Source: a virus. From it: DNA of 64,000 nucleotides. The notes beneath the pieces are model-generated. The model was not told the origin of the DNA. It saw only the letters and a list, made by a program, of their open reading frames with translations, and searched no databases. Below are positions 180-60,753 of this stretch, one piece after another; within the stretch, counting starts at the first letter, position 1; every line of letters begins with the position of its first letter. The stretch covers positions 95,413-159,412 of IMG/VR virus record IMGVR_UViG_3300035698_012088. One strand, written 5' to 3'. The translations under genes and the position numbers were made by a program.

Positions 180-815
180 ATGTATTCTGTATATATGTAC
201 ACGCACACAAAAAGTAATAAAAAGTATATAGGTCTTACAAAATATACTTTAGAAAAGAGAGCCGGTAAAGAAGGCTGCAACTATAAAGGTTGTCCTAGAT
301 TTTACGATGCCATCCAACAATTTGGCATGTCTGCATTTAAAGCAGAAGTGGTAAAATCAGAACTAACTAGAAAAGAAGCAGCTGATTTAGAGAAAAAGAT
401 GATAAGGAAACTTAAAACCAGAGACCGATCTCTAGGCTATAATCTTCAACCAGGTGGATTTTGTTATCGTAGAACCAAAAGCTCTGAAAGGAGAAGGCGG
501 CAACGAATAAAAACCACCTTGAGGAAACAAAGGTCTAGTTCTAAAGTAAGAAAGACAATGAGTAATAGAATGAAGGATGTATGGAGCGATCCTATTTTTA
601 GAGAAAAACAACTAAATATCCTTCAAACCTCTCCCACAGGAAAACCTAAAAAGAGACTTCAATGCCGCGAAACTGGAGAGGTGTATTCTTCTCAAGCCGA
701 AGCAGCTAAAGTTTGGGGGCTTAGCAAGAGCTATATAAGCCGTTCTTTAAAGGAAAAGGATTTTGTTAGAGTTAACAAGTCCTGTGGAGATTATGTGCAT
801 TTATATAGATACTAA
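180..815 (+). CDS. GIY-YIG homing endonuclease in intron loop L1
   Basis: SVYMY...KKYIGLT, a conserved R and E, GYNL, and a C-terminal NUMOD1-like segment (ETGEVYSSQAEAAK). SD GGAG upstream. Confidence 0.85.
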   Translation: MYSVYMYTHTKSNKKYIGLTKYTLEKRAGKEGCNYKGCPRFYDAIQQFGMSAFKAEVVKSELTRKEAADLEKKMIRKLKTRDRSLGYNLQPGGFCYRRTKSSERRRRQRIKTTLRKQRSSSKVRKTMSNRMKDVWSDPIFREKQLNILQTSPTGKPKKRLQCRETGEVYSSQAEAAKVWGLSKSYISRSLKEKDFVRVNKSCGDYVHLYRY

Positions 816-938
816 ACATTGTGGATGTAAAACAGGGTGAATTGCTGGAAAATCCTAAAGCCTTTTGTACTATAGTGGTTGCACTTTCAAATAGGGTGCA
901 GTACATTATCACTAAGTAACAATCAAAAGGATATTAAA

Positions 939-1355
939 ATGGACAATCAGCAGGCAAGCTCGAACCTAATACCTCTCCCAGGCCTATCTCACTATTATAC
1001 AGATGGAGTCGGGAATATTTACAGTACAAAGAGAGGAGACACCAAAAAATTGAAGACTAGACTACACTATGGAAGAAGTGCTTCGCCCTACATAAGAGTG
1101 AAGGCAGCAGCGAAGAATTATTTACTGCATAGGTTAGTAGCATCTGTCCATCTTAAAAGGCCCCTTGCCAAAGAGGAGAGGGTAAACCACAAAGATGGCG
1201 ATACTGTAAACAACAGTCTGAACAATTTAGAGGTATTGTCTCACAGGGAGAATGTTGCTCATGCCGTGAGAAACAATCTCTACTGCTCCGGTAAAGAATG
1301 GTATAAGGCCAGAGAAGCTTCAACGACTATTCCGCGAGGAAGTACACTCAAGTGA
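939..1355 (+). CDS. HNH homing endonuclease in intron P6 region
   Basis: LHRLVA...VNHKDGDTVNNSLNNLE..HRENVAHA (HNH_3 type). ATG at 939 follows AAGGA. Confidence 0.85.
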   Translation: MDNQQASSNLIPLPGLSHYYTDGVGNIYSTKRGDTKKLKTRLHYGRSASPYIRVKAAAKNYLLHRLVASVHLKRPLAKEERVNHKDGDTVNNSLNNLEVLSHRENVAHAVRNNLYCSGKEWYKAREASTTIPRGSTLK

Positions 1356-1468
1356 GTGGAAGCGCCCTGCCCCTAGTAACTTAGGGTGATGATATAGTCT
1401 GATCTGAATGGAAACATTCAGCAGCTGTAAAGCGAGCAAAGAGCAACGACCTTTGCTGAACATGAATG

Positions 1469-13582: not shown

Positions 13583-16500
13583 ATGATAGAAGAAATGACA
13601 TTCCAGAAGTTCCAGAAGAGAGACGGCAAGATAGTAAACTTTGATGAAGCTAAGATTGAGGCAGCAGTGCACAAAGCATATATAGCAGCCAGAGGGTCTA
13701 ATCACTCCTTAGTTCCTAGTATAGTATCAGAAAAAGTGGCAGAAAAAGTATATGGTGAGGACGAAGCAATATGGCACATCAATCAGGTTCATGATCTAGT
13801 TGCTATGTACTTAAAGGAAGTGGGATGTGACGATGTAGGAGTAGCTTATACAGAGTATAGACTTAAGAGGGATAAAGCTAGGAAAGAGATAAAGGTAAAG
13901 AATACAACCAAGTCCAAGAAGAGTATCACAGATGCATCTTTACTATTAGTAGAGGCCTCTGATTGTTATACCACTACTTGGGATAGAAATGAGATAGAGA
14001 AGACCTTAGAGACCCAGACAGAACTAGACTCTGATACTAGAGAAGCAATAGCAAAATTAGTAGAGAACAAGGTAATAGACTCAGGACTAAAAACTATAAC
14101 TACAGCTTTTGTAAGAGAGCTAATTAACACTGTACTACATGAGGGCAACTATGGGTGTGAGGTACAGGACTTAACAGTATATAGAATTTCAAGAGATTTT
14201 GTAGACAATTTGATGTATGACAAGGTAGATGAAAACAGTAACATCTCCAACAACAACCCAGAGGCAGTCTCTATGGCTATCTCTGAAGTAGTGCTCAAGG
14301 AATGGGCTTTAGATACAGTGTTTTCAGATGAATTGAAGAGAGCCCACTTAACAGGGGCAATCCATTTACATGACTTAGGTTATCCTCATAGAGTATACTG
14401 CTCATCCCACAGTATTGAGTATTTGAAGAAATACGGCCTTGTAGGGCATGACAACCTTAATACGGAGTCAGCCCCGGCTAAGAGTGCTAGTGTCCTTACA
14501 GGGCATCTAAACACGTATCTAGCTAGTATGCAGGCTAACTATGCCGGTGCACTAGGTCTCGGCTATGTTAACATCTTCTATGCACCCTACTTAGTGGGCA
14601 AAACAGACAAGGAAATGAAACAGGTTGCACAAGAGTTAATCTTTAATGGTTCTCAGAATGCATTCAGCAGAGGAGGACAGACCCTTTTCTTAGATTTCAA
14701 TATCCATAGTGGAGTACCAAGTTACCTCAGAGATGTTCCTGTAATAGGACCAGGAGGTAAGTATAAAGCAACCATGAATGGTCACGATGCCCTCTTAGAG
14801 GATAGATATGAAAAAGAGGAAGATCCTAATGGAAATAAGCTAATGAGCTTATGGCATGGCGATCTTTGTGTATATAAAGAAGTGTACACTAAACACGGAT
14901 ATAAAGTTGAATATCCCTATACTGATATTAAACTAATGACATATAAAGATTACGAAGTAGAGTCTCGGAGATTCTGCTCAGCCCTACTTAAAGTATGGGA
15001 AGAAGGAGATAAGAATGGCAATATATTTCCGTTTCCAAAATGCGATTTTCACGTTGATGCGGACACCTTCCTTAAGGAAGAAAATCACAAACTGTTTTCT
15101 AAAGCCTGTGAACTATCTTCTGTTAATGGCTCCACGTATTTTGTGTTTGACAGAGATGCTGTTACCTTGTCTGCCTGTTGTTTTTCAGGTGACCAAGATA
15201 TACTAATAAAAGGCAGTGCTAAAGTAACCAAAACAAAGTTTAAAGACTTTAAAGATTTAGACTACGAAGCATATAAAAGAAATTTGACTATTTTTCATAA
15301 TGGTGCTTGGTGTAAGGGTAAATATATAGAGACAGATTCTACAGATGTAGATTTCTATAAAATTAAGACAACAAATAACAAAGAGATGGTAGTAACAGCG
15401 GACCATATATTCCCCACCTGGGGGGGAGATACAGTGGCGTGTCAGTTAGATGTAGAAGACTATCTGCAGTTTAACACACTAGAGTTAGATAAACTAGCCA
15501 CACAGGATCTAGGCCTAACTTTTGAACAAGGGTTCTTGATAGGTCTATATTTAGGCGATGGGAGTTTAGATAAATCAGGTAGAAAACATGATGTATGTTT
15601 TTCACTTAATGAGCGAGATTATAATATAGCTCTACCTTATCTGACTAAAGCTCTAGAAGACTGGAATATTTCTGCAAACATATGCCTCAACACCCCCTAT
15701 AATAATGTTCATCCTGTAAGGATATCCTCTGCAGAACTTATAGACTTTATTAGAGTATGGATAGCCGGGAACCATTGTTATGAAAAAGAATTGGACTTAA
15801 ACGCTCTTGTGCAGTCAACGGAGTTTAGAGAAGGCATAGTGCACGGGTATTACACCTCTGATGGAGGAAACTCCAATAGGATCTACTCAACATCTAAAAA
15901 GTTGATTGATCAGATGGAGTGTGTTTTTACTAGCTTAGGGATGCAGACAACTATAGACGTATCAGATAGGACAGACGAACCTGTAATTATAAGGGGAGAG
16001 CAGTTCAAGAGAAACCACCCCCTATACTGCATAAGATGGTTTAACCTAAAGAATAGAAGAGCATATCCAGAGCATTATAAAGTACATAATAATAGCGTAT
16101 ATTTCAAAATTGAATCTATAGAAAACCTTGGAACTATTTCCGACAAAGCGTATTGTTTTGAAATGGACAATACAGAAGAGCCATATTTTACCCTACCTAG
16201 TGGAGTAATCACACACAACTGTAGACTGCGCACTACACTGGACGATAAGTATGCTTTAATGCATCCTGAATTAGTGTCTTTTTGTGGGTTTCAGAATGTA
16301 ACTGTAAATCTACCCCAAGCTGCATATAGAGCAGCAAGGAAAGGTAATAAGTCCATAGAGGGATTCCTAGAAGAGATAGATAATACAATGAGTCTGTGTG
16401 TACAGGCCCATCTACAGAAGAAAGATAAGATAGCACAGCTTCTAGACAAACCAGGGAAGCCTTTATACCAAATAGGTAAAATAGCTGCCCATGGTAAACC

Positions 16501-17194
16501 TTTTGTTGAGTTAGACAAATGTACATATATCATAGGTATCATAGGACTTAACGATGCACTCAACTATATGTATGGTAAAGAGATGCACGATGACCCAGAG
16601 ATTATGGACAAGGCACTCAAAGTAGTAGCCCATATGTACCATAAGACTCAGAACTACACAAAGAAACATGGACTCAAGTTTACTCTTGAAGAGACTCCAG
16701 CTGAATCCGCTGCAAGAAGATTAGCCAAAACTGATCTTAAGTTCTACCCAGAATCTGCAGGAGTGATCAAAGGTGGAGAGGACACAGAGTATTATACCAA
16801 TAGCATCCATCTCAGTGCAGATGCAGATGTATCTCTCATAGAGAGGATTAGAGAACAAGCCAAGTTTCACTCCCTAATTGAATCTGGGGCCATAACCCAT
16901 GCTTTTGTGGGCGAGGAAAATCCAGATCCCAAGACAATAGAGACATTAGTAGAGAGGGTGTTCTTAGATACCCAATCTGCACAGATCACAATATCCCCTG
17001 AGTTTACAATCTGTGACCGCTGTAAAAAGCAAAGTAGAGGACTGGAAGACACATGTGTTCATTGTGGAAGCCCAGAGGTGAAACACTTAACACGAGTTGT
17101 GGGTTATTTCTCTCTGATAGAAAACTGGAATAAGTCTAAGAGAGAAGGAGAACTCAATGCAAGACATACAGGAGAATATAGAGTCGGAACCTGA
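13583..17194 (+). CDS. nrdD: Anaerobic (class III) ribonucleotide reductase with ATP cones and an intein
   Basis: KRDGKIVNFDEAKI ATP cone, AHLTGAIHLHDL, FPFPK, SAC|C-RL, EETPAES, YYTNS, CxxC..CxxC and the RVVGYF glycyl loop. Confidence 0.95.
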   Translation: MIEEMTFQKFQKRDGKIVNFDEAKIEAAVHKAYIAARGSNHSLVPSIVSEKVAEKVYGEDEAIWHINQVHDLVAMYLKEVGCDDVGVAYTEYRLKRDKARKEIKVKNTTKSKKSITDASLLLVEASDCYTTTWDRNEIEKTLETQTELDSDTREAIAKLVENKVIDSGLKTITTAFVRELINTVLHEGNYGCEVQDLTVYRISRDFVDNLMYDKVDENSNISNNNPEAVSMAISEVVLKEWALDTVFSDELKRAHLTGAIHLHDLGYPHRVYCSSHSIEYLKKYGLVGHDNLNTESAPAKSASVLTGHLNTYLASMQANYAGALGLGYVNIFYAPYLVGKTDKEMKQVAQELIFNGSQNAFSRGGQTLFLDFNIHSGVPSYLRDVPVIGPGGKYKATMNGHDALLEDRYEKEEDPNGNKLMSLWHGDLCVYKEVYTKHGYKVEYPYTDIKLMTYKDYEVESRRFCSALLKVWEEGDKNGNIFPFPKCDFHVDADTFLKEENHKLFSKACELSSVNGSTYFVFDRDAVTLSACCFSGDQDILIKGSAKVTKTKFKDFKDLDYEAYKRNLTIFHNGAWCKGKYIETDSTDVDFYKIKTTNNKEMVVTADHIFPTWGGDTVACQLDVEDYLQFNTLELDKLATQDLGLTFEQGFLIGLYLGDGSLDKSGRKHDVCFSLNERDYNIALPYLTKALEDWNISANICLNTPYNNVHPVRISSAELIDFIRVWIAGNHCYEKELDLNALVQSTEFREGIVHGYYTSDGGNSNRIYSTSKKLIDQMECVFTSLGMQTTIDVSDRTDEPVIIRGEQFKRNHPLYCIRWFNLKNRRAYPEHYKVHNNSVYFKIESIENLGTISDKAYCFEMDNTEEPYFTLPSGVITHNCRLRTTLDDKYALMHPELVSFCGFQNVTVNLPQAAYRAARKGNKSIEGFLEEIDNTMSLCVQAHLQKKDKIAQLLDKPGKPLYQIGKIAAHGKPFVELDKCTYIIGIIGLNDALNYMYGKEMHDDPEIMDKALKVVAHMYHKTQNYTKKHGLKFTLEETPAESAARRLAKTDLKFYPESAGVIKGGEDTEYYTNSIHLSADADVSLIERIREQAKFHSLIESGAITHAFVGEENPDPKTIETLVERVFLDTQSAQITISPEFTICDRCKKQSRGLEDTCVHCGSPEVKHLTRVVGYFSLIENWNKSKREGELNARHTGEYRVGT
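15179..16219 (+). mobile_element. Intein with LAGLIDADG endonuclease (347 aa)
   Basis: Starts CFSGDQ, has block B VTADHIF, LAGLIDADG helices LIGLYLGDGS and VHGYYTSDGG, and ends VITHN before C+1. Confidence 0.92.
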
Positions 17195-17364
17195 ATGGGA
17201 TGTTCCCCCAAAGGAATTTCAGGAAGTGATATTAACAATTTTAAAACAGGGACATAAGAATAGAGATCAGGGGTTTAGAGACGAGTTCCCTGAGGAAGTT
17301 AAAGAAGGTTTACGTAGAATGGAGGACCCAGATGATGATTGGGTTCCCCCAGGGTGGGAGAAAG

Positions 17365-17745
17365 ATGTATAACATAGTAATATTTGGTAAGAAGGGTTGC
17401 GCTAAATGTAAAATCCTGAAGAAGAGAATAGCTAAAGTCTTAGAAGATGAAAAATACAGTGCATACCTGTGCACTGAAAAAGATATAACACTAGATAATG
17501 ACTTAGTAGACTTATGTAATGCTGAGTGTATTAACCCCCAACAGATACCTGCATTTTATGTAGAGACAGAGGGGAAACCTATTGTTAGGACAAGCCACTT
17601 TTCACAGATAGAATTATCTTGTTTATATGGAGTGTATACTAATTACAGTACTACAGGTACAATATTAGAGGAAGACATAAGAAATATACTTGATCAAGTT
17701 CTAGCCCTAAAACTAGGAAATGAAAAAATGAAGAAAGATCCCTAA
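17365..17745 (+). CDS. Glutaredoxin/thioredoxin-like protein
   Basis: IFGKKGCAKCKIL and a cis-Pro-like QQIPAF; two genes downstream of nrdD. Confidence 0.7.
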   Translation: MYNIVIFGKKGCAKCKILKKRIAKVLEDEKYSAYLCTEKDITLDNDLVDLCNAECINPQQIPAFYVETEGKPIVRTSHFSQIELSCLYGVYTNYSTTGTILEEDIRNILDQVLALKLGNEKMKKDP

Positions 17746-34917: not shown

Positions 34918-35754
34918 ATGACTATGAAGGAACTGATACAGAAGATATACCCAGTTGATATAACAGGATATGGTCTGAATATGACCGGAGCTAGATATTG
35001 GCTCTCTAAAGGTAGATATAATTATGCAACAAGGGTTTTTACACATTCCTCTACAAAAGAGGATCATGAACTATTAGCCTGGGCCTCTGGGGGAGGGTAT
35101 GCATATGGAGCATTTAAGTACAAAAGTAAAAGGCAGTGTGGAGCATTTTTTGTAAATGTAGACCCAAATGCCTTAGCCCTACTATTCAATGGAAAAACTG
35201 GAGCTAGTCTTCCTGTTCAGGTAGTACAGCAAGATATAGCTGAATTCGAAAAGGCTTTAGCTAATATGGAATTTGATGAAATGTCATTTTCAGAGGATGC
35301 TAAGGATACTTTGCAGATCAAATCAAGTAGTTATGTAGACACATTACCTGTAGTAGCTACCTTTATTGTATCTTATAAGGACGAGAAGAGGAGAACTTTT
35401 GGTCGCTACCACTATAGAGGTAATAACCAATGGCTTACCTCTTTTAGAGCAAGACAGTATAAGAATGGCAATCTAAGGCTGGAGTTTGTTGACCTAAACA
35501 GCAACAAATCTTTTAACGGAGATCTATCACACAATCTCCAGGAAGCAGAGGCACTTCAGGTGCCATTTACAGCATACCCAGACCTAACCCGATACTTTAG
35601 AGAGATGAAGAAAATGGATGCAAGAGATTTCAGATCTCTCCTTACCAAAATAGGTACAAAGGATCACCCAGGGGGTAGTATATATGCAGAGGGATGGGAT
35701 CAAGAAAAGCTCCTAGAAAAGATCGACCTACAAATAATGATGGGAGAATTATGA
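34918..35754 (+). CDS. Hypothetical protein
   Basis: 278-aa ORF. Confidence 0.55.
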   Translation: MTMKELIQKIYPVDITGYGLNMTGARYWLSKGRYNYATRVFTHSSTKEDHELLAWASGGGYAYGAFKYKSKRQCGAFFVNVDPNALALLFNGKTGASLPVQVVQQDIAEFEKALANMEFDEMSFSEDAKDTLQIKSSSYVDTLPVVATFIVSYKDEKRRTFGRYHYRGNNQWLTSFRARQYKNGNLRLEFVDLNSNKSFNGDLSHNLQEAEALQVPFTAYPDLTRYFREMKKMDARDFRSLLTKIGTKDHPGGSIYAEGWDQEKLLEKIDLQIMMGEL

Positions 35755-36439
35755 AATTACAAAGAGTGAAAGACTTAGTAGAAAAACATAATAATAAGAC
35801 AGCTACAGTAGAAGAATACAATGAGCTATATACCTTAGTAGAACTTGGTTATAATCTTTTAGCAGCCCTAGGCCCATACCATCATTTCTCCTGTTCTAAT
35901 TTGGCAGGACTGATGGGAGCCGTTGGGAGTAATAGAAGAGAGAAACAATATCTAAATAAAGCCAACAAAGTAGACGAGGAGAGAGAAAGTGCAAATCGAG
36001 ATTGAGACTCCATTTATTAGAGAAGCTATGCATTATGAAGAATTAGCTTACTTAGAGAAGACCCTTAAAGAAGTAACAGGTCAGGATATCCAGACTATGG
36101 AGATTGAACCTACACCTGTCCCTAAGCCCCCTCCACAGAATGAGGATGATCCCCAGGTTGTAGCACTGGGTCCGCAGTATGCTGCTATCTACTATCTCTC
36201 TGGAGAGAAGATTGAAGTAGACGCTATGGTAGATGAAGGGCAGATTAAACCATGCGAAGCGTATTGACTGCAAAAGCTAAAGGTCATGAGGAACTTACCA
36301 TTATTCTGGAAAGAATCCTTAACGAAGAGAATACAAAAATCATCTGTGTATCGGAGCTGCAGAAATGCATTCCAGGTTTGGCTACTTACTATCCAGAATC
36401 TTCTGCACTCTATAAGGTCTTCTATTCCAAGGAGATATA

Positions 36440-36676
36440 ATGGGTAAATGGTGGTTGAGCAAAACAAATGTGGATAAGTGTTACATATGTGGCTCATACC
36501 CCAGTGTTGGAGAGGATGGCCCATATATGTATTACTGTCCCAATTGCGGAGATAACTTTGTAGAAGAAGAAGAAATTGTAACTGCTATATGTGAATGGAA
36601 CAAGGAACAAAGAAATGGAATCAAAAGAATCAAAGATGCCTCTGATACCACAAAATTTAGATGCGGAGATCTCTGA
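36440..36676 (+). CDS. Lar-like Zn-ribbon protein
   Basis: CYICG...CPNCG...AICEWN. Confidence 0.5.
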   Translation: MGKWWLSKTNVDKCYICGSYPSVGEDGPYMYYCPNCGDNFVEEEEIVTAICEWNKEQRNGIKRIKDASDTTKFRCGDL

Positions 36677-37119
36677 GCACCGGACCTACATCAGGTTGGG
36701 ACATCACATCATAGATTGTGATACTCTCCTCCAGTTTGATATGCTCTGTATGACTAAAGAGATTAGAATGGATGATGTAATAGTCCCTACTCTCTTTGGT
36801 GGGGTTAAGATTACCCAAGAGCCAAAGACATATCATACTGTTTGGGGCCAAAAGATTGATGAATACTGTGAGGATATCTGGATTACAGACTATACAACAG
36901 AGACAGATGCTAAAATAGCTATTATGTTTCTTGTAGGCGTAGCCGATAAGTTAAATGAAGATGCTCTTGGCGTTGATGAAGAGAAGCTTAATAGAATAGG
37001 CCGTGTCTCTGTAGTGCCTGGGGTAGAAGAAGAACCTGAACCCCCAGCACCTTCCACATGTAGATGTGACTCTGTACCAGAAGAGTAGTATATTACCTAT
37101 ATAACATAGGAGTATACAT

Positions 37120-37488
37120 ATGGCCAGATTTACATCAGAATATCTAGAACTAGGTTTGCCTATCTTATCCCCCAATAAGAAAGCACCCTGGATTATTAGA
37201 CAAAGATTAGTATATGAAACAGATGTAGAGGGAGGACCTTCTACAATTGTTGTGCCTGAAGACTTCAACTCAGATCTAGGAACTATCCCTAGGTGGCTCC
37301 TCACCCTTTTCCCTAATGACTATAGGATTGCAGCAGCATGTGTTGTACATGACTATACCATCAAGGCGAGAATAGAGGACGAACCTTGGAGAGATAAGGT
37401 ATTTAAAGAAGCGCTGAAAGCAACAGGCTCTGGTAGGATAAAGAGGACATTCATGTATATGGGTGTTAGAGTAAATGATTTCTTTTAG
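37120..37488 (+). CDS. DUF1353-like protein
   Basis: IVVPEDFNSDLGTIPR, ACVVHDY, DKVFKEAL and MYMGVR. Confidence 0.75.
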   Translation: MARFTSEYLELGLPILSPNKKAPWIIRQRLVYETDVEGGPSTIVVPEDFNSDLGTIPRWLLTLFPNDYRIAAACVVHDYTIKARIEDEPWRDKVFKEALKATGSGRIKRTFMYMGVRVNDFF

Positions 37489-37739
37489 TAGGAGATAAGC
37501 GTATTGTATTTGACACTTGAAAAGGAAAAGAAATGGAAAATTGTGATTCAGACTGCATATGCCCTAAATGTAAATCCTGTATTCCAACAGGCAAGAGCAA
37601 CCCTAAGAGGAAGTTCTTCTGCCATACTTTAAATAGAACGATCAAAGGTACAGAAGAATGTGCCAGTTTTGTAGAGGCAAGTGACCCGTTCAAGAAAAGA
37701 AACCAAGACATCTTGAACAAATAGTGGTTAAGTTTATAT

Positions 37740-41140: not shown

Positions 41141-42420
41141 ATCAACTCGAAGAACTGCAACGCTTTGTAACAGAAGCAAACCAAACAACCTCAAGTAATG
41201 ATAAGAAGAAAGTCATTGCTAAATACCCACAGTGCAAGAAGATGTGGAATTACATATATGACAGCATGGCCTACACATATGGAGTAACCTCAAAGAGGGT
41301 TAAGAGCAAACCAGAGCTAACTACAGAGGATACCTATATCTCTATGGAAGCTTTGCTCCTAGATCTTAATGCTAGGGTCTTAACAGGTCATGCTGCAATT
41401 GCTGCTATCAATAGATTTGTAGCAGATAATGTCCAGTATAAGAATCTAATCTATGGTATCTTGGATAGGAATATCAAGACCAGAACAGATGCCAAGCTGA
41501 TCAATAAGATCTTTCCAGGATGCATTCCAGTATTCTTGGTAGCCTTAGCTGAGAAGTATGAAGATGGGATGAACATAGACTTTGATGTAGAAGTCTGGTT
41601 AGAGTCCCGGAAACTAGATGGAGTTAGATGTTTAGGCTTTGTGGATGCTGAGAACAATGTGACCCTTAAGTCTAGAACAGGTAAGCCTTTCAAGACTCTA
41701 GGTGTAGTAGGTAAAGTCCTTAAGAAGATGAATACACCCAATACAGTGTATGATGGAGAGCTGTGCTTAGTGGATGAGAAGGGTGTGGAGAACTTCCAAG
41801 AAGTGATGAAGTATATTCAGAAGAAGAACTTCACTATCCCCAATCCAAGGTACAAGCTCTTTGACATGCTAACCACTGAGGAGTTTGAGTCTGAAGTAGG
41901 AGATAGAATCCTCTCAGATAGACTCTCCCTGATCAAGGACAGTATCCCAGAAGACCAAGAGGTTGTCGTTCAACTTGACCAACATGTCATAAGAGATGAA
42001 AAGCATTTTCAAGAGAGAATGCAGGTCGCAGATAAGAATGGCTGGGAAGGTAATATCATCAGGAAAGATATTGGATATAAAGGCAAGAGATCCAAGGATA
42101 TGCTTAAGTGCAAGAAGTTCCATGAGACCGAGAAGGAGGTTGACTCAATAGCAACAGGGATGATTAGATATATTGAGGATAAAGTAGAATATGAGGAAGA
42201 GATGATGACTAAAGTTTTCATCACTCATAAGGGTAATGATGTAGGGGTTGGATCTGGGTGGAGTAGAGAACAGAGACAGTACTACTTTAAACACCCCGAA
42301 GACCTCATAGGTAAAATTATCACCATACAATACTTCGAAGAAACACTGGACGAAACCGGAAAATTAAGCTTAAGGTTCCCTACTATCAAGTGGGTTCATG
42401 GAGATCAAAGAGATACTTGA
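41137..42420 (+). CDS. ATP-dependent DNA ligase
   Basis: SRKLDGVRC, YDGEL, LFDML, WEGNI, LKCKKF, VGSG and LRFP. Confidence 0.92.
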   Translation: MNQLEELQRFVTEANQTTSSNDKKKVIAKYPQCKKMWNYIYDSMAYTYGVTSKRVKSKPELTTEDTYISMEALLLDLNARVLTGHAAIAAINRFVADNVQYKNLIYGILDRNIKTRTDAKLINKIFPGCIPVFLVALAEKYEDGMNIDFDVEVWLESRKLDGVRCLGFVDAENNVTLKSRTGKPFKTLGVVGKVLKKMNTPNTVYDGELCLVDEKGVENFQEVMKYIQKKNFTIPNPRYKLFDMLTTEEFESEVGDRILSDRLSLIKDSIPEDQEVVVQLDQHVIRDEKHFQERMQVADKNGWEGNIIRKDIGYKGKRSKDMLKCKKFHETEKEVDSIATGMIRYIEDKVEYEEEMMTKVFITHKGNDVGVGSGWSREQRQYYFKHPEDLIGKIITIQYFEETLDETGKLSLRFPTIKWVHGDQRDT

Positions 42421-42932
42421 TAGGATGAAATATAGTCATATAGCTTCAATACAGTAGATGGAGAATCGTTTAGGAAACCCAAAGCTTTATTACATCTACT
42501 ACATAAACACCCCCTAGTTTTTCCAGTATTATGGTCGTGATCTATACAAAGTATTCCTTCAATAATCCCGCAACAATTACATCCTTTAGCTTTAATTTTC
42601 GATGCCTCTTTTAAAGTTAAACCATATTTGCGCTGGTAGTGAAGATCTAGCGCCTTTTCTTTATTCTTTATATAATATGCATGGGCCCGCCCTCTGTTTC
42701 TTTTGTTATAGGCATGGTCTCTTTCTTTAAGTCTATCTTTATTCTTTTCACGGTACTCCTGATGAGTTTTTCTAATCTTGTCTTTATTCTTTAAATGATA
42801 CTCTTTACCCCATTCCTTATCGCACTCTTTACACCAACACTTATAACCATCCTTCAGGTTTTTAGCTTTACTAAAGAGTTCTTCAGCTGGCTTCTCAAGC
42901 TTACATTTTGAACATAGTTTAAGCACATCCAT
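42405..42932 (-). CDS. Endonuclease VII-like HNH endonuclease
   Basis: KYGLT, CNCC and IDHDHNTGKTRGCLCSRCNKALG. Confidence 0.85.
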   Translation of the reverse strand: MDVLKLCSKCKLEKPAEELFSKAKNLKDGYKCWCKECDKEWGKEYHLKNKDKIRKTHQEYREKNKDRLKERDHAYNKRNRGRAHAYYIKNKEKALDLHYQRKYGLTLKEASKIKAKGCNCCGIIEGILCIDHDHNTGKTRGCLCSRCNKALGFLNDSPSTVLKLYDYISSYQVSL

Positions 42933-43092
42933 CTCCTTTTAAAAAGCTGTTTAAGTTCTCTTCAGTCACTCTGGTAATCCCAGCCTTGGCTGCTTTGAGT
43001 TTACCTGACTTAATCCATAGTCTTACAGTTTTAGGGCTGACTTTTAGAATTTCCGCTACTTCTTTTACAGTGTATGTGGGAATAATACTCAT
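42919..43092 (-). CDS. Excisionase/MerR-type HTH protein
   Basis: YTVKEVAEILKVSPKTVRLWIKSGKLKA; SD AAGGAG. Confidence 0.8.
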   Translation of the reverse strand: MSIIPTYTVKEVAEILKVSPKTVRLWIKSGKLKAAKAGITRVTEENLNSFLKGDGCA

Positions 43093-44638
43093 GGATATCT
43101 CCTTTGTTGTTAAAGATAACATACATCAAAAAGGAACAAAAACAAACAATGTTGGTAAAAAAGAAACATTATGAAGGTGAGAGGGATGTGTAAGGAGTGT
43201 GTGCCCAAGTCCAGACATAGAGTTGTACACTATATACGACATGAGACCGGGTTCACAAAGTACATGTCATATTGCTGGTGGACAGGAGAACCTACTTCCC
43301 ACAGACACTTCACTACAGAGGAAGATAAAGTAACCTGTAAGCTCTGTAAAAAATGGATGCTTACTCAGATTGTGAGGGCCCTATAATGTGTAAAAAGTGT
43401 AAGCGTCCCGATGAGTCCTGGAATAGAAGCTCTCTACATAAAGTTCATCTTTGGACACATGAGTCCCTTTCTTTACCTTATATGCCTCCCTGTGGCTGTG
43501 AAGGTGGATACATCTGGGAATTTCTGCATTTCACTAAAGATACTGAGAAAGTAACATGTAAGACTTGTAAGAAGTTAATAACAAAATTAATATTGGAGGC
43601 TTTATGACAACAGTACACTACTTTAATATAGGATGTGAGGAGAATGGAAGATTAACACAGGATATGCATAGCCCAGATACTATGGCAATTGCCACTGAAT
43701 GTGGACTTATAAAGAAGCCTTTATGGACAGTAAAAGAACAGAAGCATACATACCTAGATGTCACAGAGAACAGCGAGGATGTAACATGTCCTGCCTGTTT
43801 AGAGATCATAACTAAAAAGATGTGTGAGGCACTATGAAAAAGAAAAAGGTACATTTAGCTAAGCCTAATCAGGGAGACCCTAGATGTGACTCTTGTGGAC
43901 AGGAGATAGTTGTATCTTATTGTGGGTGGAAATATAATCCACTTTCCCCCTTTATTACAGAAGATATAGAAAAGGCTACTTGTAAAGGATGTCTTAAAGT
44001 ACAAGCTACTTTAGAGTACATACCTAAGATCCACTATAGAGCTGATGTAAAATATACTTATTCTACTGGATCCTATGTTTCTAAACAGGCTATTTGCGGA
44101 CTACCTTATATAGGAGAATATAAAAAGAGGTTTACTTCTGAAGAATCTGAGGTTACATGTAAGACTTGTAAGAAGTACCTCCTAGGAAGGGTAATAAAGT
44201 CATTATGAGCCCTGCAAAAGAAAATAATAGGTTAACAGGAAAGCACTTTGTTGTGCAGGCAATGGGCACGTACTGGCCTTGGACCTCATTGTGTGGTAAT
44301 ACATATTATAGTAATGTTCTAGACTGTGTAACAGAGTCTCCAGATGAGGTAACATGTAGAGTATGTAAGAAGTTATTGTTGAATCACATATTGGAGAAAT
44401 TGTAATGCCAAGCCGACTTGATGAAGAAGATGGAAGAGTCCATTTTCATAAGTTCTCTATGTCAGATACACGGGATATTCCTCACTCTGTATCCTGGTGT
44501 GCCCGCTTCTTTGATGGCATCTGGGATTCTGAAACAGAAGATTATGTTCTTAGGGATGATCTGACAAGGAATGAAGAAGAAGTAACTTGTCAAAGATGTA
44601 TAAGTAACTTTGAGAGAGATATTATAAAAGCTATCTAA

Positions 44639-44704
44639 GGGGATGAAACGGCTTCGATTTACGTCATTGGCGTGAAGACTTGGGTTCGACTCCCAACATC
44701 TCCA
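44639..44704 (+). ncRNA. Minimal tmRNA-like RNA (tRNA-like domain only)
   Basis: GGGGATG/CATCTCC with G3.U70 and A73; stemless D-loop AAACGGCTTCGA; 8-bp helix TTTACGTC/GGCGTGAA; GAC linker; T arm TTGGG-TTCGACT-CCCAA. Confidence 0.8.
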
Positions 44705-46026
44705 AAAATAAAGAAGAGAGGACAATATGAACAAGGTTCACTATGTTAAACCATGGCCTGATATGCATATAGAGGCTTCCAAACTTAATGTCTATATGGC
44801 AGACATAGAAATGAAATCTGTCTGTGGTAAGGTCGTAGCCTTCAAGCAACTAAGAATAGTTGGACACCTTGTTGGACATCAAATCATTGCAGAGATTGAC
44901 AGCACATATAGAAGTCAAAGCAACTGCTATTGGGACACCAATATGGATAATGTAACTTGTGCTACTTGTAATAAACACATAGCAAAGGAAATTTTGAAAG
45001 GAATATAAATGTGTTATAAATGTGAAAAGGATAGACCAAGTGGTTACAACTTTTATGGAAGAGCTTCTAAGATACATTTTATAAATAGAGAGCTATCCGA
45101 GACAAATGACCCTATAGATGTGAAAGGCTGGACCTGTAGTTGTGGATATGAGGCTCTTCGTTGGGAACATAGACACGTTACTGATGATTACTTTAAAGTG
45201 ACTTGTTCTAAGTGTAAAGCAATAATTCCTCATGCATTTTTAGACGACCTAGTAGGAGAATTAAAGGAGAAACATGTGTAAATTATGTATAAGAGATAGG
45301 CCTAAGAAGTTAGGTATGTATGGACGTGCAAATAGGGTGCATCTTATGATAGAGAAAATTCCAAGGGCATTGGTCGATGACGTAGTTTACACTACACAAT
45401 GTGATTGGCAAGCTATAGCCTTTGAACATAGGCATATAACAGAGAATGTATTGGAAGTTACCTGTTCTAAATGTCTAAGTAAGATTGGGGAACTAATACT
45501 AGAGGGAATAGTACCTTCAAGAAAACAGTGCAACGGCTGGAAAAGATATAAGGCTATGAGAAAACCTAAGTGTAACTGCGGAAAGTGTTTAGCCAAATGG
45601 GAAAGAAAACAAAAAAGAAAAAGCATTGCAGAGTCTACTTAACAAAGAGATGGGAAGTCCCAAGTAAAAATAGAGACCACTGGGGTACATATATAAAGAT
45701 AAAGAAGTCTAGGATACTAAAGACCTTTCTCTGTAAGGCTAGAAGATATCCTAAAGGAGACATATTAGAAGAAGATCTCTCTAATGAAGAGGTAACATGT
45801 GCAAAATGTCTGAAGATAATTGTCCAAAGAACAATAGAAAGTCTGTGAGTCATTACTATTGCAGCCCTACTGTAGGTAGTTTTAAGAGGATACATAAAGG
45901 GAGGTTGTGTAAGTATGGCGCGGCATTCATAAAAAGATGGGGGTTTAGGATAACTAATTTAGATTCAGAGGTTATTACCTGTGAAGACTGTAAAAAGAGA
46001 TACTTAAGGTATCTAACAGAGGCACT

Positions 46027-54094: not shown

Positions 54095-54263
54095 CTCGGA
54101 GTAGCTCAAGTCTCTTCACAGTGTAATCAGAGCCCTGGTAGAAGTCGAAGTGGCACGAAGCACATTGTTTTGAGGGGAACTCTTCGGAGTAGGTGGAGCA
54201 ACTCTCTGGAACAGATCTTACCCGGAGAGTAGGTTATTGGTTCGATTCCAATCTCCGAGGCCA
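54095..54263 (+). ncRNA. 169-nt tRNA-like RNA with a D-loop insertion and extended anticodon arm
   Basis: CTCGGAG/CTCCGAG-G-CCA; D stem GCTC/GAGC; T arm ATTGG-TTCGATT-CCAAT. Confidence 0.8.
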
Positions 54264-60670: not shown

Positions 60671-60753
60671 GGAAGTGTATGCCCCCTGGCTTATATCCAG
60701 TGCATTATAATGGGCTAATTTGGTGCATGTAGGTTCGAGGCCTACCACTTCCA
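60671..60753 (+). ncRNA. D-armless tRNA-like RNA, anticodon UAU
   Basis: GGAAGTG/CACTTCC-A; CTGG-CTTATAT-CCAG; variable stem TGCATTA/TGGTGCA; T arm GTAGG-TTCGAGG-CCTAC. Confidence 0.75.

Follow-up and report, generated by a model that had tools for sequence, protein, structure and literature searches.

Trans-translation is nearly universal among bacteria and is a drug target. To our knowledge, mycobacteriophage DS6A provides the single known case of a phage tmRNA reduced to its tRNA-like domain (TLD), and it has been treated as a curiosity. According to the accounts of Mao et al. (2009) given in PMC4131195 and PMC11915505, a TLD-only tmRNA was published for DS6A, and a similar TLD-only molecule proved to be a strong inhibitor of tmRNA in E. 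coli, chargeable or not; the functions considered in these accounts are those of an SmpB decoy and of a tag-free rescue RNA. AlaRS, EF-Tu and SmpB recognise the TLD alone: AlaRS charges it, EF-Tu binds it, and SmpB does so with high affinity; once the peptide has been transferred, the ribosome cannot go on without a resume codon, which the mRNA-like domain supplies (review PMC8012679). Outside phages, a TLD-only molecule is the sole tmRNA of jakobid mitochondria and some plastids, where it co-occurs with SmpB and is thought to help with incomplete mRNAs; plastid tmRNAs of about 65 bp in Mallomonadaceae and mitochondrial forms without a CDS have also been reported, and a 2025 tmRNA database includes nine 'standard, no CDS' entries among 97,179 sequences (PMC11915505).

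We analysed a window of 64,000 nucleotides, which corresponds to bases 95413-159412 of a 159,412-bp virus record and comes from a large, uncultured phage. An earlier note on this DNA, made from the sequence alone, had described a tmRNA reduced to its tRNA-like domain, for which it proposed the same two functions that are considered in the DS6A literature. The Rfam tmRNA model RF00023 matches positions 44639-44707 (+) of the window across the whole model (1-374) with 306 internal positions deleted, and the score of 56.3 bits (E 2e-19) passes the gathering score of 47, with both model ends matched; this agrees with the earlier description. All TLD letters that are highly conserved in the RF00023 consensus are matched by the element, and a search of the whole 159,412-bp record with RF00023 returned the same single match. 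Model R1, which represents the mini-tmRNA family and has the element's own sequence in its seed, likewise has one match in the window, at 44639-44704, and no second such element was found anywhere in the 159-kb record. The earlier note had proposed searches with both the tmRNA and the mitochondrial tmRNA models. The former matches as described, whereas RF02544 has no match at the locus, and its sole match in the record, at another position, scores 13.7 bits where 65 are required. An ordinary tRNA was also rejected: RF00005 gives 26.8 bits, below the cut-off of 29, the central helix has a 3-nt loop rather than the 7-nt loop of an anticodon arm, and ARAGORN made no call at 44639-44704. No other tmRNA pieces were found in the 159-kb record, and since its first 96 kb are free of matches to any Rfam family, the mini-tmRNA is not accompanied by a full-length or two-piece tmRNA in this phage.

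The gene, delimited by RF00023 and the fold, comprises 66 nt on the plus strand from G1 to the discriminator A (44639..44704). Its secondary structure was taken as the RNAfold minimum-energy fold, in which RNA positions 1-7/59-65 form the acceptor stem, 8-19 the D-loop, 20-27/31-38 helix 2 and 42-58 the T arm, with the discriminator A at position 66. The 5' acceptor strand GGGGAUG (44639..44645), which carries G3, pairs with 44697-44703 to form a 7-bp stem, and the G3:U63 pair of the RNA corresponds to tRNA position 3:70. There follows a stemless 12-nt D-loop, AAACGGCUUCGA (44646..44657), with GG and UUCGA that match the upper-case Rfam consensus GG.UUCGA. Helix 2 (44658..44676), an 8-bp helix (UUUACGUC/GGCGUGAA) with two G.U pairs and the triloop AUU, replaces the mRNA-like domain and the pseudoknots in the fold. 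A GAC linker from helix 2 to the T arm (44677..44679) aligns with the conserved GGAC of the Rfam consensus and of our family alignment A1 (described below), and the T arm itself (44680..44696) consists of the 5-bp stem UUGGG/CCCAA and the loop UUCGACU, as seen in both the consensus alignment and the fold. The 3' acceptor strand CAUCUCC, which holds U70, and the discriminator A73 complete the gene (44697..44704), all of these parts lying on the plus strand; AAA comes next and CCA is not encoded. Two of the five tRNAs that ARAGORN finds in this phage (Glu and Leu) also lack an encoded CCA, and therefore the host must add it. The consensus alignment and RNAfold agree with the TLD hallmarks that had been listed previously (G3:U70, A73, the stemless D-loop with GG..TCGA, the GAC linker and the T arm), and the fold and the 306 deleted model positions bear out a helix 2 closed by a 3-nt loop with neither tag frame nor pseudoknots.

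Compared with one-piece SsrA (RF00023), the RNA has homologous ends and the same acceptor, D-loop, GAC linker and T arm, whereas about 300 nt are missing, comprising the resume codon, tag frame, stop codon, PK1-PK4 and helix 5. The strands of helix 2 are separated by the 3-nt loop alone, which leaves no resume codon, tag reading frame or stop codon, and therefore the RNA cannot template a tag; nor does the 66-nt element contain sequence that could form PK1-PK4. The element is homologous to tmRNA, with every TLD feature kept and the mRNA-like domain gone, and is, as judged from its sequence, a genuine phage gene for a tag-less mini-tmRNA, the TLD of a tmRNA alone. The DS6A RNA resembles it in being phage-borne, in having a complete TLD with G3:U70 and A73 but no tag frame and no pseudoknots, and in matching both R1 and RF00023, and the two phages are alike in having no SmpB of their own. 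They differ in that the DS6A RNA is 80 nt long with an apical AAAACC-GC..GC-GG hairpin on helix 2, whereas this copy is 66 nt with a triloop, and in that DS6A is a 60-kb mycobacteriophage, whereas the present phage is AT-rich and 159 kb or more, with no integrase found. The tmRNAs of jakobid mitochondria (RF02544) and Mallomonadaceae plastids are likewise reduced to the TLD, are similar in size and are presumed to depend on SmpB without tagging. They are, however, encoded in organelles and have no other tmRNA beside them there, whereas a normal host tmRNA is expected alongside the phage RNA; the jakobid mitochondrial molecules are moreover usually circularly permuted, and their model misses the phage locus.

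Integration at ssrA is common, and the 3' end of the gene can be carried by phages (PMC9004378). We therefore considered whether the element might be what is left of an attP site used to integrate into the ssrA of a host, a scenario also named in the earlier note. This origin is hardly credible here, and the scenario found no support: the 5' and 3' halves of the TLD are both present, intact and connected through a clean helix, no tyrosine integrase was detected in the record (82% complete according to CheckV), and the family to which the RNA belongs is found mostly in records not flagged as proviruses. Profile searches of the same 82% complete record likewise gave no match for SmpB, a CCA-adding enzyme or an RF-1/ArfB-like protein.

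A search for homologs, which had also been proposed, revealed a large phage family. The first pattern used TLD motifs with 8-38 nt between the D-loop and T arm and with G3 and U70 fixed, and it identified 60 IMG/VR loci of 74-80 nt. Widening the gap to 39-69 nt identified 10 further IMG/VR loci of 81-108 nt, and a looser pattern returned at least 120. Family lengths among IMG/VR loci range from 61 to 108 nt and are mostly 78-80 nt; in metagenomes, the same kind of pattern found short forms at 16 loci (67-72 nt). Among 185,579 prokaryote species represented by one genome each, there were just five matches, all on MAG contigs, and the family is therefore essentially phage-specific. The mini-tmRNA family is thus large, structurally conserved and almost exclusively phage-borne, and it includes the DS6A molecule. 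The expectation that such an RNA would be nearly unprecedented outside jakobid mitochondria did not hold, given the published DS6A precedent and the wide occurrence of this kind of RNA in phages. The kind itself is already known from DS6A; the wider value of the searches lies in showing its frequency in uncultured phages of many sizes, its uniform build and its near-absence from cellular genomes.

In most family members, helix 2 ends in a small apical hairpin that contains an AAAGCC-like motif. This hairpin, typical of the 75-80-nt majority form, is absent from the 66-nt copy, which has the triloop AUU instead and is among the shortest members, and which may not behave exactly as the 75-80-nt members do. 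The same minimal design, a TLD with a plain hairpin as helix 2, was found at L219 (61 nt), L080/L091 (67 nt), L083 (68 nt), L087 and L209 (69 nt each) and L090 (70 nt). The helix 2 sequences of these short members are unrelated to that of the 66-nt copy, and their carriers have no detectable proteins in common with this phage; L209 has its acceptor stem, T arm and AUU triloop in common with the 66-nt copy, and the L209 phage (146 kb), tried as a possible relative, was rejected with zero detectable proteins in common. The recurrence of the minimal design with unrelated helices argues that the 66-nt form is not a one-off accident, and the short form probably arose several times. A separate subgroup (L007, L023, L045, L057 and similar), present in several distinct phages, has the acceptor GGGGUGG/CACCUCC with non-standard U.C and G.A oppositions at positions 5 and 6.

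To examine conservation, we constructed alignment A1 from 45 distinct family sequences with 19 consensus pairs. Compensatory changes were found at 11 of the 19 pairs, including all seven modelled pairs of helix 2 and both variable pairs of the T stem. In the 66-nt copy, no pair is broken in helix 2, in the T stem or at acceptor positions 5 and 6, and all follow the covariation pattern of the family; the first pair of helix 2 is U-A rather than the C-G of 40 of the 45 members, both sides having changed. These compensatory changes and the covariation of helix 2 indicate that the RNA structure is under selection. The scan was repeated with the entire 5' strand and positions 69 and 70 left free, and a perfect 7-bp acceptor stem was then present in 103 of the 111 distinct sequences among the matches listed. 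All 103 of these listed perfect-stem sequences have G3:U70 although the positions were free to vary, and A73 is invariant in the same 103, whereas acceptor pairs 4-6 vary and covary. Among the matches listed, the two G residues of the D-loop are conserved in 92% and 84% at free pattern positions, lengths range from 61 to 81 nt with a mode of 78-80 nt, and CCA is encoded in 24 of the 103 members. The pattern at free positions indicates that the alanine identity pair G3:U70 is under strict selection.

The genomic context of the element is a compact array of small paralogous genes (about 46-125 aa) that extends on the same strand as the RNA from 43171 to beyond 47680 (+). Most of the array products end in ..(E/D)(E/K)VTCxxCxxxLLxxxxxxL, and the members tested matched no Pfam family. 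As judged from the list of open reading frames, each array gene abuts the next or overlaps it, by 0-8 nt or more, in a tight, translationally coupled arrangement, and the sole gap between 43171 and 47680 is one of 88 nt that holds the 66-nt RNA and a 22-nt spacer. Immediately upstream lies a 77-aa Cys-motif mini-gene without a Pfam family (44405..44638, +), whose TAA stop abuts G1 of the RNA. The spacer (44705..44726, +) contains a purine-rich ribosome-binding site (AAGAAGAGAGGA) of the next gene, a 93-aa Cys-motif mini-gene (44727..45008, +, from the same list). A scan for promoters and terminators gave no specific or convincing signal beside the mini-tmRNA, and the simplest reading of this layout would be co-transcription with the array followed by excision by tRNA-processing enzymes.

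Between the ligase gene and the plus-strand array lie two genes on the opposite strand (42405-43122, -), one for an Endonuclease VII-type nuclease (PF02945, E 1.4e-13) and the other for an HTH_17/MerR-like DNA-binding protein (E 7e-15); this pair looks like a mobile homing-endonuclease cassette. Elsewhere in the window, positions 763-1421 (+) match the group I intron model RF00028 with a large insertion (51.5 bits against a cut-off of 50), and positions 54183-54260 and 60671-60753 (+) match the tRNA model at 30.3 and 26.0 bits without being called by ARAGORN; these two matches coincide with odd tRNA-like RNAs.

The array layout could also be explained if the element served merely to punctuate or process the transcript, as an RNase P/RNase Z site or a 3' cap that splits or stabilises the mini-gene message and has no role in trans-translation. 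We regard this as improbable. The RNA does start exactly after the upstream stop, inside a co-directional array and without its own promoter or terminator, and across the family, a same-strand open frame of at least 60 codons ends within -5..+25 nt of the RNA 5' end in 27 of 72 members; in one contig with a related ligase (L064, below), the RNA even overlaps the stop codon of the upstream open reading frame. Tight packing beside an upstream gene would be expected for any small phage gene, however, and any tRNA-like fold would suffice for such a purpose, yet the tmRNA-specific D-loop, GAC linker and G3:U70 have been kept in more than 100 diverse phage lineages. Within a wider distance of 300 nt upstream, a same-strand open frame of at least 60 codons ends in 62 of the 72 distinct copies, and tRNA genes lie within 300 nt of 13 of the 72, nearly always on the same strand.

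The carrier phages were also searched for components of trans-translation. No SmpB was found in 46 carrier records, of which 11 reach a completeness of 90% or more, and no full-length tmRNA was found in 31 carriers of 15-296 kb, 17 of them at least 90% complete. The strong RF00023 matches in these 31 carriers are all 72-106 nt long, and the mini form is therefore their sole tmRNA-like gene. Such features are compatible with an RNA that stands on its own, undergoes tRNA-like processing and relies on factors of the host. Across 92 loci there was no conserved protein neighbour; the clusters that did emerge were confined to related phages. Fragments of tRNA and tmRNA are reportedly handled by phage proteins and by host nucleases in the course of infection (PMC11662646), and the RNA could conceivably be a decoy for a host factor other than SmpB, such as a defence nuclease, RNase R or AlaRS. 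We consider this very improbable, given that no conserved protein partner adjoins the RNA across the family and that the conserved features are those of a TLD that binds SmpB, AlaRS and EF-Tu.

No close relative of the phage was reached by blastn or by searches with the nearby ligase. The region gave no blastn match among 50,697 phage records, and the 66-nt query matched only those parts of full tmRNAs and tRNAs that form the T arm and the acceptor end. A DNA ligase search with the single protein returned no relatives, and one with a two-sequence alignment returned 41 loci. RNA-model matches were present in two of 15 whole records with a related ligase, namely the L064/L125 contig and a degenerate element at L144, and the mini-tmRNA is therefore accessory and patchily distributed. 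The L064/L125 contig encodes a DNA ligase 42% identical to that of this phage and, about 2 kb away, a 105-nt TLD RNA without an encoded CCA (L064:9343-9447, +). This RNA has the UUCGAU/AAGAC junction in common with the 66-nt copy, and its acceptor and T stems differ by paired changes. The last codons of the upstream open reading frame, together with its TAA stop, coincide with the first 10 nt of this RNA, and RNase P cleavage at G1 would therefore leave an mRNA without a stop codon. The apical region of the L064 RNA contains GCG ACG UAA, a putative two-codon frame. Among the other loci, a Hint/LAGLIDADG intein splits an RNA polymerase Rpb1-domain-5 protein at L150:14809-17733 (G000 14809-17733), and another intein splits a radical SAM/SPASM enzyme at L151:16526-18712 (G000 35526-37712).

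The TLD-like element at L144, which scores 39.6 bits and has a mismatched acceptor, bears on whether the 66-nt element could be a non-functional remnant, that is, a full-length phage tmRNA gene that suffered a random internal deletion and is decaying. The mismatches in the copy of Streptomyces phage Alone3 and the fact that the exact 66-nt sequence is a singleton without a close homologue would be consistent with such decay. In the present copy, however, all stems are perfectly paired, the conserved TLD letters are intact in both halves and the 8-bp helix 2 is exactly re-closed; the element also fills the sole gap of a compact array, and its minimal design recurs with unrelated helices in other lineages (61-72 nt; L219, L080, L083, L087, L090 and L209). 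We therefore think a decaying remnant quite improbable, and the random deletion that the earlier note had raised against its own interpretation is unsupported.

The mini-tmRNA is probably a charged, SmpB-binding competitor of host tmRNA that damps or blocks trans-translation. In this proposal, the mini-tmRNA would be transcribed with the surrounding plus-strand array of mini-genes, cut by RNase P at G1 in a tRNA-like excision, trimmed by a 3' nuclease after A73 and supplied with CCA by a host enzyme. Host AlaRS would then charge it with alanine through G3:U70 and A73, and host SmpB would bind it, the phage encoding none. The charged RNA would compete with host tmRNA for SmpB, and probably also for EF-Tu and for the empty A site of stalled ribosomes; with neither a resume codon nor a tag frame in the mini-tmRNA, the SsrA degradation tag would not be added, and host trans-translation would be damped or blocked during infection. 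We infer these steps because the TLD is recognised by AlaRS, EF-Tu and SmpB (review PMC8012679), and SsrA tagging should fall because the mini-tmRNA cannot template a tag.

The strict conservation of G3:U70 suggests that charging matters, and it would favour an action on the ribosome, either as a dead-end substrate or in tag-free release, over simple sequestration of SmpB, since a pure SmpB sponge would not need the pair. Against a charge-dependent action, the inhibition observed in E. coli was independent of charging, as far as it is recounted in PMC4131195 and PMC11915505. One tentative reading is that the RNA is a charge-dependent ribosome agent and a widespread phage device: the alanylated RNA would be delivered by SmpB and EF-Tu to ribosomes stalled on cleaved mRNAs and would accept the nascent chain, with either a tag-free end or a trapped ribosome as the result. 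This reading gains some plausibility from G3:U70, which occurs in 103 of 103 perfect-stem sequences among the matches listed and is unneeded by a pure decoy. If it were correct, the 66-nt copy would be near the smallest natural RNA able to act in this way.

We regard productive tag-free rescue as unlikely. Here, the predicted Ala-mini-tmRNA and SmpB would enter stalled ribosomes, accept the nascent chain and release it untagged, through drop-off and peptidyl-tRNA hydrolase or through an ArfB-type factor, so that ribosomes would be recycled, and proteins that are truncated or of phage origin would be spared proteolysis. Several observations are consistent with such a role: G3:U70 and A73, both invariant at free positions in the 103 sequences among the matches listed, point to selection for charging; the carrier phages have no full tmRNA of their own among the 31 searched; and a TLD-only RNA serves as sole tmRNA, with SmpB, in jakobid mitochondria and some plastids (PMC11915505). 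However, there is no known way to finish the process without a resume codon and a stop codon, no RF-1/ArfB-like gene was found in the record, and the one experiment recounted in PMC4131195 gave inhibition of tmRNA rather than rescue. If, as we favour, the RNA is a competitor of host tmRNA, it would represent a natural phage RNA that serves as a compact inhibitor or probe of trans-translation, and the 66-nt copy, which lacks the apical hairpin, helps to define the minimal functional core.

Unannotated copies are also present in the cultured phages DS6A, BRock and Alone3, in which experiments would be possible. The DS6A mini-tmRNA lies at JN698994.1 28478-28557 (L097:1501-1580) and scores 58.3 bits with R1, whose seed does not include it. 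The copies in Streptomyces phages BRock (NC_048650.1, L104:1194-1271; 65.6 bits) and Alone3 (OR725492.1, L105:1179-1255; 46.1 bits) each lie inside a tRNA cluster, and the mismatches of the Alone3 copy fall within helix 2 and the T stem. The tmRNA of mycobacteriophage Kumao is a normal one of 407 nt. The 'tmRNA' calls that ARAGORN makes at L083 and L087 are false, with long invented tag peptides; in both cases, the program joins the 5' half of a neighbouring tRNA to the 3' half of the mini-tmRNA. Weak matches of 24-30 bits in Synechococcus phages S-CRM01 and S-CAM1 and in Ruegeria phage RpAliso have no D-loop and were not accepted as members of the family; those in the cyanophages may be pieces of two-piece tmRNAs. 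In S-CAM1, this is an unannotated 52-nt element (L106:1182-1233) with a tmRNA-type T arm and 3' acceptor strand but without the D-loop motif, which may be the acceptor piece of a two-piece tmRNA, and similar matches are present in S-SSM7 and S-CAM3.
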